From Promethearchaeota archaeon (GTDB lineage Archaea; Asgardarchaeota; Thorarchaeia; Thorarchaeales; Thorarchaeaceae): a DNA stretch of 8,820 nucleotides. This document shows positions 1,672-6,066 of the stretch, one piece after another (within the stretch, counting starts at the first letter, position 1; each line of letters begins with the position of its first letter). The stretch covers positions 1-8,820 of the forward strand of contig JALVPN010000207.1 in assembly GCA_027031765.1 (NCBI GenBank). Reading direction: 5' to 3'. Below the pieces are notes generated by a model. The model was not told the DNA's origin. It searched no databases and worked only from the letters and a program-made list of their open reading frames with translations. A program made the position numbers and the translations under genes.

Positions 1672-3813
1672 CTACACCTCAACCACGAACCGCTGGCCCA
1701 TCTGGGGGACCTTGAAGCCCTCAGGTGCCATCCGCAGCGGCGTGTGGACAATGAACCTCTTGCCCGTACACTGGTGTGCGAATGCCTGGAGGTTCGACGA
1801 CGAGGAGTGGGCACTGAGCCGTGCATAGTGTACAGTGCACTCGTGTGGCTCGTAGCCACGGAGAAGGTTCCAACCGGGAGTGCGGGGTGCAAGGTACCCA
1901 CACAGGACCACTGCGGCCTCCGGGTTGCGGCTGTGCTGTCGGAAGTGTTCGCGTGCGAGGCCACCACCAAGCATGCCGCCACCCGCCACGAGTATGTCAT
2001 CTGGGTCAAGCACCACTTTGTTCTTCTTCATCCCCTTCCAGTGGCCCTTTATTCCGACCAGTCGCGTGACCCGTTCTGCAAGGCCCCCGGTGATCACGTT
2101 TCGGGAGGCTGTGATACCGAGTTCTTCGAGTATCATGAGGATTTCCTGGCAACGGCCGACTGCGAATGTCGGGACTATTACTGGGCCGTGCTCCCGGACG
2201 ATGGAGGCGATGTCCTCGCGCACGCGCGTCCTGTCAAAGTCCTGTCGTCCCCAGTAGGTGCCGTCCACTATCACGACGTCGGGGTCTGTGGGCATCACAG
2301 CGCCGGGAAACAGCACCGACCGGTCCAGGTTGAAGTCGCCGGTGTAGAGTATCATGAGGCCCTCGATATCGATGAGAAAGGCCGCGCTACCTGGGACGTG
2401 GCACGCATCGAGAGGCGTGACGACAATCCCCGGCCCCACCTCGCTGCTCTTGCCGACCTCGATGGGCACGTGCTGTTTCGCCACCCTGTCGATGTTGCGC
2501 TGTCTGAACCACGAGACCGGGTCCGTAGAGTCCCGCTTCCGTGGTGGGAGCGGGGTGCCCACTGTGAGGGCATCGTCGAGGAGCGCCTTTGTTATTGCCC
2601 CCGTCAGCGGGGTGGAACACCACTTGCCGGTGAACCGCTCGAACAGTATTGGGAGGCCTCCCGTATGGTCGAGGTGGGCGTGAGTGACAAGCACGCTGTC
2701 AATCACCTCCAGTTCGGGCACCCACTGGGGAGTTGTCTGGTTGGCAACGGACAGGCCATAGTCCAGGAGGACACCCCCCGTGGCGGTCTTGATGATGATG
2801 CCACTGTGGCCGATACCGGGCCCTCCAATGAAGATGAGCTCGACCTTGCGTGTTGGGACTGAGTAGGCCACAGACGGCAGGAGTTCACGCCGCATCCTCT
2901 CAGGGATCATCTCAAAGACAACAGAGTCGAGCGGCTCTGGCGTGGGTGGCGCCGGCAGCTCATGCAGTCGTACGGGGAGCACATCGTCGCTCCCCACCCG
3001 GAACCCTAGCGACCTGAACACGTCCTGCACCGCGCTCACGGCCTCGGGCACCGACATCGATGGGGAGAGGGCCAGCTGTGCCTGTTCGTAGGCCTGGGCC
3101 CTGAAGATGTCGAAGAGGCGCATCTGGAGGCCTTCTGGTAGCCACGTCTTTGTGGCATCATAGACGTCGCTGTACCAGCGTCCCTCGACAGCCTCGGCCA
3201 TGTATTCGGGGTGCCTCACCAGAGTGTCCACGAGGCGGAGGTCGCCCTCACGGACGAGCCCCGACAGGTCGACACCCACGGTGCTGGCCGCCTCAGCAAG
3301 TCTGGAGGGGGTGACAAGCGGGGCGCCCAGGAACCGGATGTGCTCGCGGACCCGGGCGAGTACGTACTCCGGCTCATCGTCTGGGACTGCGGAGAGGAAC
3401 ACCAGGGCCTTGTAGAGCCACCTGTGGAGCTCACCGAGGCCCCTGCCATTTGACAGGGAGAACCGGTACACGTACCTGAAGTCGTCCTCGGTGTAGTTAC
3501 CGAGCAGCATCCCATACATGCAAAGTCCGAGGCAGTGTATCATCTCAGTACCCGGCAGGCCGCGCACAGCATCACGCAGTACGAGGCCGAGCTGTGCGTG
3601 CACAGCCCTTGCCGACCCGAGCCCCACGGGTTCAACGTCATGGGCCCGCAACAGCTCGAACGGGAGGAGGTCCCGCGGCAGGCCGAGGATGTCCTCACCT
3701 TCCGGGATGGCATGTCCTTCACCCGCAAGGGCAGCGTCACTGGCAGCCTGGTCGAAGAAGTCAGAGATCACCTCGTTGTCTGTGTGTGGGAGTCGTTCAC
3801 GGAGTATGGTCAT
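1672..3813 (-). CDS. Beta-CASP metallo-beta-lactamase ribonuclease (aCPSF-like) with a long N-terminal domain of unknown family
   Basis: Motifs in order: LLDYG, THAHLDH (HxHxDH at 2665-2682), ACHVPGS, YTGDF, VDGTYW, PTFAVGRCQE, GGMLGGG, CGYLAPRTPG, LSAH, FIVH. The nuclease part starts near 2844 (VELIFIGG). The start is either ATG at 3813 or GTG at 3822. Confidence 0.92.
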   Translation of the reverse strand: MTILRERLPHTDNEVISDFFDQAASDAALAGEGHAIPEGEDILGLPRDLLPFELLRAHDVEPVGLGSARAVHAQLGLVLRDAVRGLPGTEMIHCLGLCMYGMLLGNYTEDDFRYVYRFSLSNGRGLGELHRWLYKALVFLSAVPDDEPEYVLARVREHIRFLGAPLVTPSRLAEAASTVGVDLSGLVREGDLRLVDTLVRHPEYMAEAVEGRWYSDVYDATKTWLPEGLQMRLFDIFRAQAYEQAQLALSPSMSVPEAVSAVQDVFRSLGFRVGSDDVLPVRLHELPAPPTPEPLDSVVFEMIPERMRRELLPSVAYSVPTRKVELIFIGGPGIGHSGIIIKTATGGVLLDYGLSVANQTTPQWVPELEVIDSVLVTHAHLDHTGGLPILFERFTGKWCSTPLTGAITKALLDDALTVGTPLPPRKRDSTDPVSWFRQRNIDRVAKQHVPIEVGKSSEVGPGIVVTPLDACHVPGSAAFLIDIEGLMILYTGDFNLDRSVLFPGAVMPTDPDVVIVDGTYWGRQDFDRTRVREDIASIVREHGPVIVPTFAVGRCQEILMILEELGITASRNVITGGLAERVTRLVGIKGHWKGMKKNKVVLDPDDILVAGGGMLGGGLAREHFRQHSRNPEAAVVLCGYLAPRTPGWNLLRGYEPHECTVHYARLSAHSSSSNLQAFAHQCTGKRFIVHTPLRMAPEGFKVPQMGQRFVVEV

Positions 3814-3814
3814 G

Positions 3815-4897
3815 TCAATCACGTCGTCCGAGCCCTGGTGGACTACGTTGGCCTGGGGGGCCAGGGGTCACCCTATACAGGCCCTGTCTGCTGTCACGGA
3901 GGGACACTCTCTTCTGCACGAGCCCCTCTGAGATCAGTAACGAGAGTGCATGCCGGACAGTCCGGGCTGGTAGCATGGTCTCCTCAATAATCTGTCGCTG
4001 GGTCAGCTGGCCCTTGTACTCAAGGACCTTGAGCACCAGCTTTGCACTGGGTGGGAGGTCGTGGGCCGCATTGTCGAAGACCTCGGCCTTCTTCAGTAGC
4101 TTGCCCCGGAGCACTGCAATCCGTTCCTCAGAGAACTTGACGAACACGGCGTCAGAGTCGGAACGCCTTATTGTGACCGGCCCGTCGCCGACCTCCTTCC
4201 GGAGCTGTCCGTCCAGGACCGCCTCTATCTTGACCGAGCTGATGAGGTCACGGATCTCGACCTCCATCCTGTCCGATACGATGAGTGGGCGTCGTGCCGG
4301 GTTCACACTATTGACGGTGACTATCGAGAAGACCGGGGCCGAGTTGAGGACGACGGGCCCGCCCACGCTCATCGAGTAGGCCGTGCTCCCGGTGGGCGTG
4401 GACACGATGAGGCCGTCACTACCGTCCTTCCAGAAGGGCTCACCGTCGAGGACGAGGGTGTACCGCATCAGGGTCGCGCTCCGACGTGCAAAGACTGCCA
4501 CATCATTGAGGAGTGGTGGTGACTCCGAGCCCCCTATCGTTGCCACGAGCCGCATCCGTCTGTCCTCGGTCCACCTGCCATCCATGAGGTCTCCAACGAC
4601 CGTGTCGAGCGCCGTCACTGTGACGTCAAAGAGGAAGTCGGGCTGTCCTTTCGACGACACCGGTAGCACTGGGGTCTCCCGGTCACCGAGACGGATGAGG
4701 GTGTCCAGCAGACACCGGTCTGAGCCCACTACTGCAATGATGTCAGCATCAAGGTCTTCCAGTTGGGCGCCCTCCCTGCCCAGTGTCGCGGCCAGTCTCT
4801 GCTCAAGCGCGACCTCGACACCTGCCGCCTCGAACGTCGCAATTGCCGTCCGTGCGTCCTCTACGACTGTGGCCTCGGGACCCGAGACAATGCCCAC
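3815..4897 (-). CDS. NAD-kinase-like protein with degenerate GGDG motif, fused to a C-terminal MarR-type winged helix-turn-helix
   Basis: NAD kinase signatures LLNDVAV, SDGLIVSTPTGSTAYSMSVGGP and LDGQ are present. GGDGT is replaced by GSDRC (4712-4726). The C-terminal LPPSAKLVLKVLEYKGQLTQRQIIEETMLPARTVRHALSLLISEGLV...RDSRQGLY (~3869-4057) matches archaeal MarR-like wHTH proteins. GTG start with AAGGAGGT at 4918-4911. Confidence 0.9.
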   Translation of the reverse strand: MGIVSGPEATVVEDARTAIATFEAAGVEVALEQRLAATLGREGAQLEDLDADIIAVVGSDRCLLDTLIRLGDRETPVLPVSSKGQPDFLFDVTVTALDTVVGDLMDGRWTEDRRMRLVATIGGSESPPLLNDVAVFARRSATLMRYTLVLDGEPFWKDGSDGLIVSTPTGSTAYSMSVGGPVVLNSAPVFSIVTVNSVNPARRPLIVSDRMEVEIRDLISSVKIEAVLDGQLRKEVGDGPVTIRRSDSDAVFVKFSEERIAVLRGKLLKKAEVFDNAAHDLPPSAKLVLKVLEYKGQLTQRQIIEETMLPARTVRHALSLLISEGLVQKRVSLRDSRQGLYRVTPGPPGQRSPPGLGRRD

Positions 4898-4921
4898 GCG
4901 CGTCCTGCAGACCTCCTTGGA

Positions 4922-4950
4922 GTACCATATGGTACGGGCAAGTCACTTGC
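4922..4950. promoter_or_regulatory. Two adjacent palindromes, candidate operator over the inferred start site of the kinase-HTH gene
   Basis: Perfect 14-bp GTACCATATGGTAC (4922-4935) and 6-1-6 GCAAGT-C-ACTTGC (4938-4950), 2 bp apart. The sequences are seen directly; the function is inferred. Confidence 0.55.
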
Positions 4951-4957
4951 ACCCGCC

Positions 4958-4966
4958 CTCTTAAGT
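4958..4966 (-). promoter_or_regulatory. Putative TATA box of the kinase-HTH/RNase unit
   Basis: The minus strand reads ACTTAAGAG. The identical 9-mer occurs at 8399-8407 upstream of the last ORF. Confidence 0.5.
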
Positions 4967-5005
4967 GAGACGACAGGGGATGCGGCGACAGCGTAGTCAG
5001 CGGAT

Positions 5006-5018
5006 GGCAAGAATTGCC
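5006..5018. promoter_or_regulatory. 5-3-5 inverted repeat midway between the divergent TATA-like boxes
   Basis: GGCAA-GAA-TTGCC is centred at 5012; the midpoint between the two TATA-like boxes is ~5013. Confidence 0.4.
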
Positions 5019-5060
5019 TGTGCCTGCCCGTCCCTGTCCGGTTTGCCGATTGAGATTTGC

Positions 5061-5068
5061 CTTTAAGG
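5061..5068 (+). promoter_or_regulatory. Putative TATA box of nadA
   Basis: CTTTAAGG lies 33-40 nt upstream of the ATG at 5101 in an otherwise GC-rich spacer. Confidence 0.55.
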
Positions 5069-5100
5069 GCTTGGGAGGCCAGCTCCATCGGCGTCTGACG

Positions 5101-6066
5101 ATGACCTCAGACCTGAATGACATCCAGCGAGAAGTCCTCGCACTCAAGCGCGAGCGCGGGGCCCTCGTCCTTGCACACAACTACCAGCTGCTAGGAGTAC
5201 AGAGGGTCGCAGATTTTGTCGGCGACTCGCTCCAGCTGGCCCGCAAATCGGCCCAGGTCTCAGGGTACAACATGATTGTGTTCGCAGGTGTCCGGTTCAT
5301 GGCAGAGATGGCTGCAGTCCTTGCACCAGAGGTACCAGTCTACATACCGGCACCAGACGCACTGTGCCCGCTGGCCGCCTTTGTCGATGGCGAGAAGGCC
5401 CGCAAGTGCAGGGCACAGCACCCTGGCGCCCCGGTTGTGCTGTACGTGAACACGACAGCGGAGGCCAAGACCGAAGCCGATGTGATATGTACGTCCAGCA
5501 ACGCGGTCGAGGTCGTCGAGTCGCTCGGTACTGATACTGTGATATTTGGGCCCGATGCGAACCTAGCAGAGTATGTCCGCAGGCAGACAGGCGTGGAAGT
5601 CGTGGACGTCGAGCCCCGGGGCCACTGTTACGTCCACAGACAGTTTGATGTCGCACAGGTCGAGCTCCTGAGAGAGGAGCACCCCGGTGCACTGGTGCTC
5701 GTCCACCCGGAGTGCTCGCCGGAGGTACAGGACGTGGCTGACATTGTCTGCTCAACTGGCAAGATGGTGAAGGTCGTTGCAGAGAGCAGGGCAAGGGAGT
5801 TCATAGTGGCCACGGAGGTCGGGCTTGTGGAACGGCTCCAGGCAGCACACCCTGACAAGACCATCATCCCAGCCCATCCCGGGGCAGTCTGTCGCCAGAT
5901 GAAGAAGACGACCCTGGAGAAGGTAGTGCATGTCCTCCGGGAGCTGCCAGAAGAGAACCTCGTCACAGTGCCCCCTGAGAGGGCAGAGCGGATACGGCGT
6001 GCGCTCGAGCGCATGGAACTGACCGTGCACAGGCCCCCGGTCGCCAGCGTGGTGGCCCATCACTAG
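5101..6066 (+). CDS. nadA: Quinolinate synthase A ([4Fe-4S] enzyme)
   Basis: LAHNYQ, DFVGDSLQLA, FAGVRFMAE, LYVNT, CTSSNA, FGPDANL, HPEC and TEVGLVERL are present, with three cluster-ligand Cys in LCPLA, HCYVH and VCRQMKK. The ATG at 5101 (MTSDLNDIQ, 321 aa) is preferred over the track's start at 5014, which runs through the promoter. Confidence 0.97.
   Translation: MTSDLNDIQREVLALKRERGALVLAHNYQLLGVQRVADFVGDSLQLARKSAQVSGYNMIVFAGVRFMAEMAAVLAPEVPVYIPAPDALCPLAAFVDGEKARKCRAQHPGAPVVLYVNTTAEAKTEADVICTSSNAVEVVESLGTDTVIFGPDANLAEYVRRQTGVEVVDVEPRGHCYVHRQFDVAQVELLREEHPGALVLVHPECSPEVQDVADIVCSTGKMVKVVAESRAREFIVATEVGLVERLQAAHPDKTIIPAHPGAVCRQMKKTTLEKVVHVLRELPEENLVTVPPERAERIRRALERMELTVHRPPVASVVAHH

Follow-up and report, generated by a model that had tools for sequence, protein, structure and literature searches.

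The window analyzed here is a stretch of 8,820 nt from a Thorarchaeota contig. In it, the gene of an NAD kinase-like protein with a winged helix-turn-helix (NADK-wHTH; P0002) and the gene of a beta-CASP nuclease (P0001) form a tight pair that is divergent from nadA (Table 1). The other neighbors of the pair are genes for an Arf-like GTPase, HAD and PPase. A Roadblock domain in the Arf-like GTPase, considered as a possible tie to the Roadblock neighbor of the nuclease in another Asgard family (f10), had no support in Pfam. The start of nadA is likely ATG 5101 and not TTG 5014, and the spacer 4898–5100 is common to the divergent NADK-wHTH and nadA genes.

The minus strand across the junction of the pair reads GTG ATT GAC ATG ACC. 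The first-pass annotation had placed the NADK-wHTH stop and the nuclease start one nucleotide apart and had noted an alternative GTG start overlapping the upstream gene; direct reading of the letters confirms both points, the overlap with the NADK-wHTH ORF being 8 nt. The 1-nt spacing is not a conserved feature: across 14 related loci the distance from stop to start varies from -8 to +45 nt, and in three loci the two ORFs overlap or nearly touch. The conserved part is the tight same-strand adjacency. Judging from this layout, co-transcription of the nuclease with NADK-wHTH is almost certain in this genome. A search for sequencing runs that contain this DNA gave no RNA run and a single DNA run, from a hydrothermal-vent metagenome, possibly the sample of origin. 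A scan of the locus for bacterial-type promoters and terminators was uninformative for an archaeon.

Table 1. Features of the nadA locus; positions are those of the window.
Feature	Position	Strand	Details
Long beta-CASP nuclease gene, P0001, 716 aa	1672..3822	-	Pfam Lactamase_B_2 and Beta-Casp; MBL/beta-CASP residues ~322-716
HxHxDH metal-binding motif, HAHLDH, residues 381-386	2665..2682	-	Invariant alignment columns
N-terminal all-helical domain of P0001, residues 1-326	2845..3822	-	AF2 model, pLDDT 89
NADK-wHTH/nuclease junction	3811..3822	-	GTG 3822-3820, TGA stop 3817-3815, C 3814, ATG 3813-3811
NADK-wHTH gene, P0002, 360 aa	3815..4897	-	NAD-kinase-like body, residues 1-270; C-terminal winged helix, ~276-343
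Winged helix-turn-helix domain of P0002	3869..4072	-	Nearly invariant across Thorarchaeales
GGDG kinase motif position, reads G-S-D-R, residues 58-61	4715..4726	-	Alignment to NAD kinase 7mh7
Shine-Dalgarno-like AAGGAGGT before NADK-wHTH start	4911..4918	-	GGAGG recurs there in related loci
TATA-like box CACTTAAGAGG of NADK-wHTH/nuclease unit	4957..4967	-	ATTTAAG-type box in 15/16 Thorarchaeales loci
Operator site 2 (predicted), perfect palindrome GGCAA-GAA-TTGCC	5006..5018	.	0-1 mismatch in 11/11 regulator-bearing loci
Operator site 1 (predicted), half-conserved, TTGCC on nadA strand	5035..5047	.	Just upstream of nadA TATA
nadA TATA-like box, CCTTTAAGG	5060..5068	+	TTTTAA/TTTAAG ~30 nt before nadA start, 16/16 loci
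nadA, quinolinate synthase	5101..6066	+	Pfam NadA, E 3e-104; NCBIfam nadA above cut-off

The probable NAD kinase-like regulator and the nadA spacer

P0002 matches the NAD kinase families of Pfam (NAD_kinase_C, E 9e-22; PF20143, 77.6 bits versus a cut-off of 23.7), and its residues 279–338 match MarR_2, HTH_24 and other wHTH families. Membership among the NAD kinases was judged by PF01513/PF20143 together with the NCBIfam NAD kinase equivalogs, and P0002 is far below the cut-offs of all of the latter (best NF002984, 130.8 bits versus 326). In alignment with the solved NAD kinase 7mh7, GSDR and SSKGQPDFLF of P0002 stand opposite GGDG and GINRGSLGFL; neither the GGDG phosphoryl-transfer motif nor GxNxGxxGFL is present. 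The NE/ND and TPTGSTAY motifs of the NAD-binding C-domain are present as LND and DGLIVSTPTGSTAY, and the corresponding LN[DE] and DG..V.TPxGSTAY are invariant across the Asgard families.

The kinase motif is nearly invariant within Thorarchaeales, as GSD[RK]. In other Asgard families it reads GNDK, GGDG, GDDG, GRDG, GRDR, GGAA, GDTG or GGTG; the catalytic Asp is gone in f5 (GDTG, GGTG) and f16 (GGAA), while f8 retains the full GGDG. The wHTH domain is 47–65% identical in other Asgard families according to tblastn and is also conserved in the alignment. A canonical 289-aa NADK with GGDGT is encoded elsewhere in the same genome and also in genomes without the fusion.

Orthologues of NADK-wHTH were found in 54 of 87 Thorarchaeales genomes, and the gene is linked to NAD genes in six Asgard families. 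In f1, f2 and f15 its divergent partner is nadA, and in f5 it is nadA-nadC; in f20 the gene is followed by an NAPRTase-like gene, and in f16 it adjoins NAPRTase-like and isochorismatase (PncA-like) genes.

Analysis of the nadA spacers revealed a GGCAA-N3-TTGCC palindrome in families f1, f2, f5 and f15. It occurs in 11/11 Thorarchaeales, 5/5 f5 and 2/2 f15 loci, far above shuffled sequences; for the 11 Thorarchaeales loci with the regulator, the match level of site 2 was reached by 0–12 of 2000 shuffles. In five Thorarchaeales loci lacking the regulator gene the palindrome is decayed or deleted. Both sites hold a fixed position relative to the nadA TATA box; their starts are 29 nt apart in 10 loci and 30 nt apart in one, and the 16-nt spacer between them is unconserved. 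It should be mentioned that site 1 persists in genomes without the regulator, as does a similar TTGCCGAY-plus-TATA element at the tRNA-Cys promoter, and therefore part of the footprint may be core promoter or the site of another factor.

Candidate sites outside the spacer were also considered. The genome contains 11 exact palindromes versus ~3.4 expected, most of them inside ORFs, and the surroundings of nadC, of the nadB-like genes and of the canonical NADK yielded no operator. The promoter of an NAPRTase-like gene carries a site with one mismatch and a second one at 29 nt; this site is not conserved in 17 other Thorarchaeales genomes, and the gene's membership of the regulon is regarded as unproven. 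The tRNA-Cys palindrome was rejected as a mark of the regulon: the element is kept also in genomes without the regulator and so probably belongs to something else. Of the regions inspected in f8, f16 and f20, none showed a clear operator site.

Thus, P0002 is very probably a transcription factor of NAD metabolism that was derived from NAD kinase and regulates nadA. The first-pass annotation had already read the gene as an NAD-sensing regulator whose promoter/operator region is common to nadA, and motif drift, NAD-gene linkage and the palindromes, lost together with the regulator, uphold that reading. In the literature searched, whose coverage is incomplete, we found no published description of an NADK-wHTH regulator, nor did the search return one of any archaeal transcriptional regulator of NAD synthesis.

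The long beta-CASP nuclease

The catalytic half of P0001 is complete in its motifs. PF10996 is matched with 31.1 bits versus a cut-off of 27.7, and all seven motifs (MBL motifs 1–4 and beta-CASP motifs A, B and C, the last being His) are invariant in the nuclease family; in 30 sequences the invariant residues are D354, H381/H383/D385/H386, H475, D496, D520, H672 and H693. Its best relatives in the PDB are aCPSF1/FttA, INTS11, CPSF73 and Cas14 (E 1e-55 to 1e-44), with the DNA-acting Apollo and Artemis at ~1e-5. In an 18-row tree, which contains no Sulfolobus reference aCPSF2 and in which the naming of the short forms is itself inferred, the P0001 group forms its own clade (support 100/100) apart from aCPSF1 and the short beta-CASPs.

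The N-terminal domain has no match in Pfam at E<=1 and no fold relatives in the PDB by Foldseek (best E 0.5) or in the ESM Atlas (TM <=0.32). The top rows of VIA-align were CTD-interacting domains, those of Seb1 (Z 5.2) and Pcf11 (Z 5.0), followed by HAT/TPR repeats; since these values are under the noise level for helical proteins, no fold was read from them. Among 1.84 billion proteins the domain matches only 30 cluster representatives. Similarity to Nudix, DXO, Rossmann or other nucleotide-binding domains was found by none of Pfam, Foldseek, VIA-align and Atlas.

From its sequence, P0001 is predicted to be a catalytically competent beta-CASP nuclease of RNA type, belonging to an Asgard-specific group with a novel helical N-domain of ~320 aa. 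We take its role to be general RNA processing or RNA decay and not NAD-cap-specific. To our knowledge, published surveys distinguish four main groups of archaeal beta-CASP proteins, with an N-terminal extension only in aCPSF1. The P0001 group would be a further, Asgard-restricted one with an unrelated and confidently folded domain, and no description of it was found in the literature searched (coverage incomplete). It would add an uncharacterized RNA-processing enzyme to a lineage that is studied for the origin of the eukaryotic RNA machinery.

Linkage of the two genes and its interpretation

In every one of the ~48 Thorarchaeales genomes in which both genes were located, they are adjacent and on the same strand, and no Thorarchaeales genome with coordinates for both has the regulator apart from the nuclease. 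The reverse does not hold: at least 15 Thorarchaeales genomes, including seven with a completeness of 90% or more, keep the nuclease and have lost the regulator. In loci with a deleted regulator gene, it is the nuclease that stands directly behind the same ATTTAAG-type TATA box. Outside the order, the regulator has no adjoining nuclease in five families (f5, f8, f15, f16 and f20), in four of which nadA or genes of NAD salvage lie beside it; the nuclease occurs without the regulator in f10, f18 and f22, near KaiC-like or unrelated genes. One f5 genome (G074) contains both genes 82 kb apart. The linkage is thus confined to Thorarchaeales, where synteny extends over ~20 kb: in most genomes tRNA-Cys is found 5–20 kb from the locus, and synteny also includes the genes for the Arf-like GTPase, HAD and PPase. 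With gene order conserved over such a distance, adjacency inside the family says little about a shared function. The predicted complex of P0002 with the nuclease N-domain scored 0.00, a value that was obtained without controls and counts neither way.

The locus is probably best described as two units on one transcript, an NADK-derived regulator and a beta-CASP nuclease of the Asgard-specific group. The C-terminal kinase domain of P0002 would still bind NAD(P)-type ligands. The phosphoryl-transfer site appears remodelled, so P0002 may act mainly as a sensor. An oligomer of it could set the winged helices on sites 2 and 1 with the fixed 29-nt phasing, and binding there, just upstream of the nadA TATA box, would adjust both nadA and the divergent operon of P0002 itself to the NAD(P) pool. 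What P0002 binds, whether it activates or represses, and how it oligomerizes are all inferred. In Thorarchaeales the nuclease, lying directly behind the regulator, would be read from the same promoter, and its expression there therefore probably follows NAD status. The nuclease family itself is found, and is maintained, independently of the regulator.

The first-pass annotation went further and proposed one module in which the nuclease, together with the NAD sensor or under its control, removes or degrades NAD-capped RNA or decays nadA mRNA. We consider this very unlikely. The strict adjacency and the ORFs that in three loci overlap or come close to touching speak for it, and the report that it invoked is real: deletion of the beta-CASP exonuclease Saci-aCPSF2 in Sulfolobus raised NAD-RNA 4.5-fold (PMC10663502). 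However, the nuclease outlasts the regulator, either gene occurs without the other in several families, and G074 holds them far apart; moreover, P0001 lies outside the clade of short beta-CASPs, which includes the 422-aa paralogue of its own genome, and its N-domain offers no similarity to nucleotide-binding proteins. The conservation of the three-gene arrangement across Asgard archaea, which the same annotation had set as a check, holds only within Thorarchaeales. Given this restriction and the separate persistence of the two genes, a link of the NAD pool to RNA turnover remains unsupported speculation. A narrower version, in which NAD(P) sets the transcription of an RNase whose helical N-domain recognizes NAD-type 5' caps or another NAD-derived mark, seems to us most improbable. 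Nevertheless, the strict nesting, with the regulator never apart from the nuclease in the Thorarchaeales searched, is the single observation that plain synteny explains incompletely. If the module did exist, cofactor supply would be coupled to RNA decay in Thorarchaeales; it is worth stating that order-specific gene order is the only basis of the NAD-to-RNA link, as this guards the hypothesis from over-reading.

Inherited synteny could also be the whole explanation, the nuclease being expressed, independently of NAD, from a promoter of its own within the 3' end of the regulator gene. The long conserved gene order and the many genomes that retain the nuclease alone are consistent with this, but an intergenic promoter has no room in gaps of -8 to +45 nt, and the conserved TATA box directly before the nuclease in regulator-deleted loci argues the same way, making this quite unlikely. 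A different doubt concerns P0002 itself, which might be bifunctional, using an altered donor site to phosphorylate NAD, NADH or NaAD while substrate and product switch its DNA binding. D60 is invariant in Thorarchaeales, S59, R/K61 and SKGQPDFLF are conserved rather than random, f8 keeps GGDG, and the archaeal RbkR, whose DNA binding is enhanced by CTP and inhibited by FMN (PMC5397151), offers a precedent. With the motif Asp kept in Thorarchaeales and the full motif in f8, the protein may have residual or altered kinase activity. Bifunctionality as such is unlikely: in f5 and f16 the catalytic Asp is lost while the wHTH and NAD-binding motifs persist, the same genomes also encode a canonical NADK, and every NCBIfam NADK equivalog score is far under its cut-off. 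The two-unit reading remains our preferred one.

Comparison with known systems

Among beta-CASP proteins, the best solved match to the catalytic half of P0001 is the transcription-termination RNase aCPSF1/FttA (2ycb, 3af5, 9bct; E 1.8e-55). Both have the same MBL/beta-CASP motifs, His at motif C and an N-terminal extension before the core; however, the extension of aCPSF1/FttA consists of two KH domains, while that of P0001 has no KH match. P0001 is not aCPSF1/FttA (TIGR03675, 148.7 bits versus 580; a clade separate from the KH-bearing proteins), and the genome has its own 639-aa aCPSF1 with KH_TffA. The 5'-3' exoribonuclease aCPSF2 (Sso0386, Saci-aCPSF2), implicated in NAD-RNA turnover (PMC10663502, PMC3553952), also belongs to the CPSF-73-related archaeal set of beta-CASP RNases, but its members are ~420 aa long and have no N-domain. 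P0001 was rejected as an orthologue of aCPSF2 (COG1236 group): in the 18-row tree it groups with neither short-form cluster, and the genome's own short beta-CASP clusters apart from it. RNase J was rejected as well (TIGR00649, 17.4 bits versus 400; PDB RNase J ~1e-10 over ~80 residues). Cas14 (8yhd), the beta-CASP effector of type VII CRISPR-Cas, is similar in the catalytic half (profile E 2e-45); the similarity begins at the Cas14 N-terminus, so the N-domain of P0001 is not shared. P0001 is not Cas14 (NF045584 of NCBIfam, 134 bits versus 800), and there were no cas genes among the annotated neighbors of the nuclease in four loci.

P0002 has by sequence the two-domain fold of canonical NAD kinase (PpnK/NadK; 7mh7, 1z0s, 1suw) and differs from it by the remodelled GGDG and GxNxGxxGFL and the added wHTH. 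As far as outlined in PMC2330246, the bacterial Nudix-related regulator of NAD metabolism NrtR likewise combines an effector resembling an enzyme of NAD metabolism, often catalytically dead, with a C-terminal wHTH, and controls nadA/nadB/nadC or pnc genes, often being encoded beside its targets. Unlike P0002, it is bacterial, has a Nudix fold and other operator motifs, and there is no sequence relationship between the two. NadR and NiaR are further comparable NAD regulators, and NadR is a precedent for a bifunctional enzyme-regulator. RbkR, a riboflavin kinase/wHTH regulator of archaea (Rodionova et al., 2017, PMC5397151), resembles P0002 in that the kinase domain of an archaeal cofactor pathway is joined to a winged helix; RbkR has palindromic operators at its own gene and at cofactor biosynthesis genes, and nucleotide ligands modulate its DNA binding. 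The effector of RbkR is an active CTP-dependent riboflavin kinase, whereas P0002 has an NAD kinase fold with a motif degenerate in most lineages; the putative targets of its family are nadA, nadC and NAPRTase-like genes. With RbkR/NrtR-type regulators P0002 shares (i) a pathway-derived effector joined to a wHTH, (ii) linkage to the pathway in distant lineages and (iii) a conserved palindrome, and it would be another enzyme turned sensor.

Gene layout of the locus

Contig C207, covered here over all its 8,820 bp, comes from a 2.95-Mb, 95%-complete MAG. All of the contig's best protein matches carry the Thorarchaeota label, and the single sequencing run containing it is a hydrothermal-vent metagenome. 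The genes flanking nadA, the putative kinase-HTH regulator P0002 (NADK-wHTH) and the long beta-CASP nuclease P0001 encode a 5'-truncated Arf-family GTPase (convergent to the nuclease), a HAD hydrolase and an inorganic pyrophosphatase. Two further ORFs gave no Pfam or NCBIfam matches.

The 1-nt spacing between regulator stop and nuclease start and the overlapping GTG, described in the first-pass annotation, are correct on the minus-strand sequence. The 1-nt value itself is not conserved: across 14 related loci, stop and start are between -8 and +45 nt apart. The listed nadA start is preferred because translation from TTG 5014 would give a 29-residue leader that is unconserved and whose coding sequence crosses promoter elements.

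Elsewhere, at C41:8658-9527, the genome encodes a canonical 289-aa NAD kinase with GGDGT; it also encodes a 639-aa aCPSF1/FttA (KH_TffA+KH+MBL+beta-CASP+RMMBL), a 422-aa core-only beta-CASP protein and another MBL protein. Thus, with housekeeping NADK and beta-CASP copies present, P0001 and P0002 are extra paralogues.

It should be mentioned that an Arf/Roc-family GTPase of 625-650 aa is a conserved convergent neighbor of the nuclease throughout Thorarchaeales (L012-L015, L037). It has a long C-terminal region with a weak wHTH-like match at the end; a Roadblock domain was not detected within it. In family f10 a Roadblock/LC7 protein occupies that convergent position. Farther out, 4-8 kb past the GTPase gene and outside the stretch that the window covers, loci L012-L015 carry an N6 methyltransferase-restriction fusion of the Eco57I/MmeI type together with a C5 DNA methylase.

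Coordinates of genes, candidate sites and related elements in the window (C207) and in compared sequences
Feature	Sequence	Position	Strand	Remark
Arf/Roc-family GTPase	C207	2-1570	+
Nuclease P0001	C207	1672..3822	-	716 aa
Regulator P0002	C207	3815..4897	-	360 aa; TGA stop 3817-3815
Regulator/nuclease junction	C207	3817-3811	-	TGA 3817-3815, C, ATG 3813-3811
Alternative GTG	C207	3822-3820	-	in frame with nuclease; 8 nt within regulator ORF
Regulator-operon TATA box	C207	4957-4967	-
Palindrome (site 2)	C207	5006-5018		candidate operator
Half-conserved site (site 1)	C207	5035-5047		candidate operator
nadA TATA box	C207	5060-5068
nadA start	C207	5101	+	probable ATG
HAD-family hydrolase	C207	6146-6802	-
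Family-less ORF	C207	7743-8396	+	217 aa
Family-less ORF	C207	8427-8819	+	131 aa; leaves contig end
NAPRTase-like promoter	C92 (L056)	2062-2103 (1039-1080)		own genome
tRNA-Cys element	C157 (L052)	4102-4229	-	own genome
Roadblock/LC7 protein	L036	3783-4214		f10
KaiC-like ATPase	L036	6929-7744	-
KaiC-like ATPase	L040	844-2253	+
KaiC-like ATPase	L041	2948-4360	-
HAD hydrolase	L091	6005-6700	-	f8

The kinase-HTH protein and the spacer facing nadA

P0002 matched NAD_kinase_C (9e-22), several winged-helix families matched its residues 279-338, and its score against the NCBIfam NAD-kinase models was far under every cut-off. Aligned with the solved Pseudomonas NADK 7mh7, it has GSDRC at GGDGS and SSKGQPDFLF at GINRGSLGFL, with NDV and DGLIVSTPTGSTAY retained. 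Among the Thorarchaeales orthologues the replacement residues hardly vary, and neither does the winged helix. The Asp of GGDG is the catalytic base of NAD kinase. Where NAD kinases have GGDG, the proteins of six Asgard families have GSDR, GNDK, GGDG, GDDG, GRDG, GRDR, GGAA, GDTG or GGTG; two of the six lack the catalytic Asp, while the wHTH and the NAD-binding motifs of the C-domain remain conserved. Judged from sequence, this pattern is the one expected for a ligand-binding pseudoenzyme.

A table of neighbors by Asgard family, compiled by genome search, places the NADK-wHTH gene divergent from nadA in f1, f2 and f15 and from nadA-nadC in f5. It precedes a NAPRTase-like gene on the same strand in f20 and adjoins NAPRTase-like and isochorismatase (PncA-like) genes in f16. 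A HAD-family hydrolase gene adjoins nadA here and in other Thorarchaeales loci, and an unrelated HAD hydrolase gene adjoins NADK-wHTH in f8. These HAD genes may supply NAD metabolism with a phosphatase or nucleotidase, or their position may be a coincidence.

In the spacer between regulator and nadA, the palindrome GGCAA-N3-TTGCC (site 2) was found with 0-1 mismatch in 11/11 Thorarchaeales loci with the regulator and was equalled by just 0-12 of 2000 shuffles; five f5 and two f15 spacers contain xGCAA-N3-TTGCC or GGCAA-N3-TTTCC. The start-to-start distance between sites 1 and 2 is 29 nt in ten loci and 30 nt in another, and the 16 nt between them are not conserved in sequence. Both keep a constant distance to the nadA TATA box and start, whereas the TATA box of the regulator operon lies anywhere from 5 to about 45 nt from them; this two-site architecture is therefore anchored on nadA.

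In five Thorarchaeales genomes the regulator gene is gone, nadA directly faces the nuclease gene, and the sole remaining NADK is canonical (25-29% identity). Their palindrome carries mutations in L012, L019 and L035 and is deleted in L025 and L030. Site 1 is retained in all five, and part of the spacer footprint may serve another factor. Taken together, motif decay, gene linkage, the spacer footprint and this co-loss support well the first-pass proposal of an NAD-sensing regulator divergent from nadA, and P0002 is predicted to be a sensor-type regulator of NAD genes.

Beyond nadA, no palindrome site was found in the genome of C207 close to nadC, the nadB-like genes or the canonical NADK. The promoter of a NAPRTase-like (pncB-type) gene carries GGCAAGAATTGCG and, 29 nt downstream, a second GGCAA-type site with the same phasing as at nadA, about 45-85 nt ahead of the likely ATG; this two-site element is not conserved at the orthologues in 17 other Thorarchaeales genomes. 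Besides its xGCAA-N3-TTGCC site, f5 (L098, L100, L102) has another, different conserved palindrome, TTTGnTTnAGGnCAAA, near the TATA box and start of nadA.

A look-alike, xGCAA-N3-TTGCCGAYAT followed by a TATA box, is kept family-wide upstream of the tRNA-Cys(GCA) gene (related loci L062-L087); the own genome has a perfect GGCAACAATTGCC there. Only three places in this genome, nadA, tRNA-Cys and C26:5944, combine TTGCCGAY with a TATA box. The element at tRNA-Cys is conserved whether a genome has NADK-wHTH or lacks it, which may reflect some other factor or a special class of promoter.

A distinct group of long beta-CASP nucleases

The MBL/beta-CASP core of P0001 is confined to residues about 322-716. 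In a 30-sequence alignment of the P0001 group from five Asgard families, the catalytic residues D354, H381/H383/D385/H386, H475 and D496 are invariant, as are D520 of motif A, H672 of motif B and H693 of motif C. The motif C His is reportedly, after Callebaut et al. in 2002, the mark of RNA-acting beta-CASP members. A PDB profile search placed aCPSF1/FttA on top (1.8e-55), followed by INTS11, CPSF73 and Cas14; RNase J and the DNA-acting Apollo and Artemis came much lower.

For the first 320 residues, neither Pfam, even with a limit of E<=1, nor the PDB profile search gave a match. Their predicted fold is confident (pLDDT 89, 16 helices), and no significant structural neighbor was found in the PDB or ESM Atlas. 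The N-domain profile matches just 30 cluster representatives of 1.84 billion proteins, the full-length ones having 664-786 aa. Within this domain, EDFRxxxR, FLGxP and YLxE stand out as conserved patches.

In a maximum-likelihood tree of catalytic domains (18 rows from six Asgard genomes, with L004, L107, L117 and L118 excluded as partial or not beta-CASP) the proteins of 695-739 aa form one clade with 100/100 support and a long stem; the aCPSF1 proteins with their KH domains form a separate clade, and proteins of 420-460 aa fall into two other clusters. A survey of archaeal beta-CASP proteins distinguished aRNase J, aCPSF1, aCPSF1b and aCPSF2, with an N-extension in aCPSF1 alone (PMC3553952). 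The N-extended, separate long nuclease clade is therefore outside those four groups, although the survey predates Asgard genomes. P0001 is interesting by itself: its Asgard beta-CASP group is undescribed and its N-terminal domain novel.

Association of nuclease and regulator, and described regulators

The N-domain nuclease was found in 65/76 sampled genomes of the thorarchaeal family and in the one sister-family genome, the regulator in 54/87 genomes of Thorarchaeales. Wherever both have coordinates (about 48 genomes), the regulator is directly upstream of the nuclease on the same strand. At least 15 Thorarchaeales genomes, seven of them at least 90% complete, keep the nuclease without the regulator, which is absent from whole genera (g4 0/7, g9 0/4); the dependence is one-sided. 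Gene order is kept over about 20 kb around the locus in the family: the GTPase, HAD and PPase genes keep their positions, and the tRNA-Cys gene lies 5-20 kb away in most genomes.

The three-gene arrangement, tight in Thorarchaeales, does not hold in other Asgard families, where regulator and nuclease are apart. Families f10, f18 and f22 have the nuclease and lack the regulator; in f8, f15, f16 and f20 the regulator is present and the N-domain nuclease was not found. Family f5 has both, separated by 82 kb in the complete genome G074, where none of the nuclease neighbors is NAD-related. In f10 and f22 a KaiC-like (RecA-superfamily) ATPase gene lies just upstream of the nuclease on the same strand, and its product could be a partner of the nuclease outside Thorarchaeales.

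The first-pass annotation had also suggested that the locus couples the NAD pool to RNA turnover, through NAD caps or nadA mRNA. What speaks for this is gene order specific to one order, outside which the two families separate, and nothing in the sequence, synteny or phylogeny results indicates an NAD-related substrate of the nuclease. The Sulfolobus finding adduced in its favor, a rise of NAD-RNA on loss of aCPSF2, was accurately cited; it concerns aCPSF2, and P0001 does not group with the short forms. We consider such a coupling improbable. The promoter ahead of the nuclease gene either gained the NAD regulator or shared it at an earlier time, and in Thorarchaeales nuclease and regulator are probably expressed together.

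Our literature search found no paper describing the NADK-wHTH family. The closest described precedent is the archaeal regulator RbkR, a riboflavin kinase fused to a wHTH; CTP and FMN modulate its binding to DNA (PMC5397151). NrtR is the bacterial NAD analogue.
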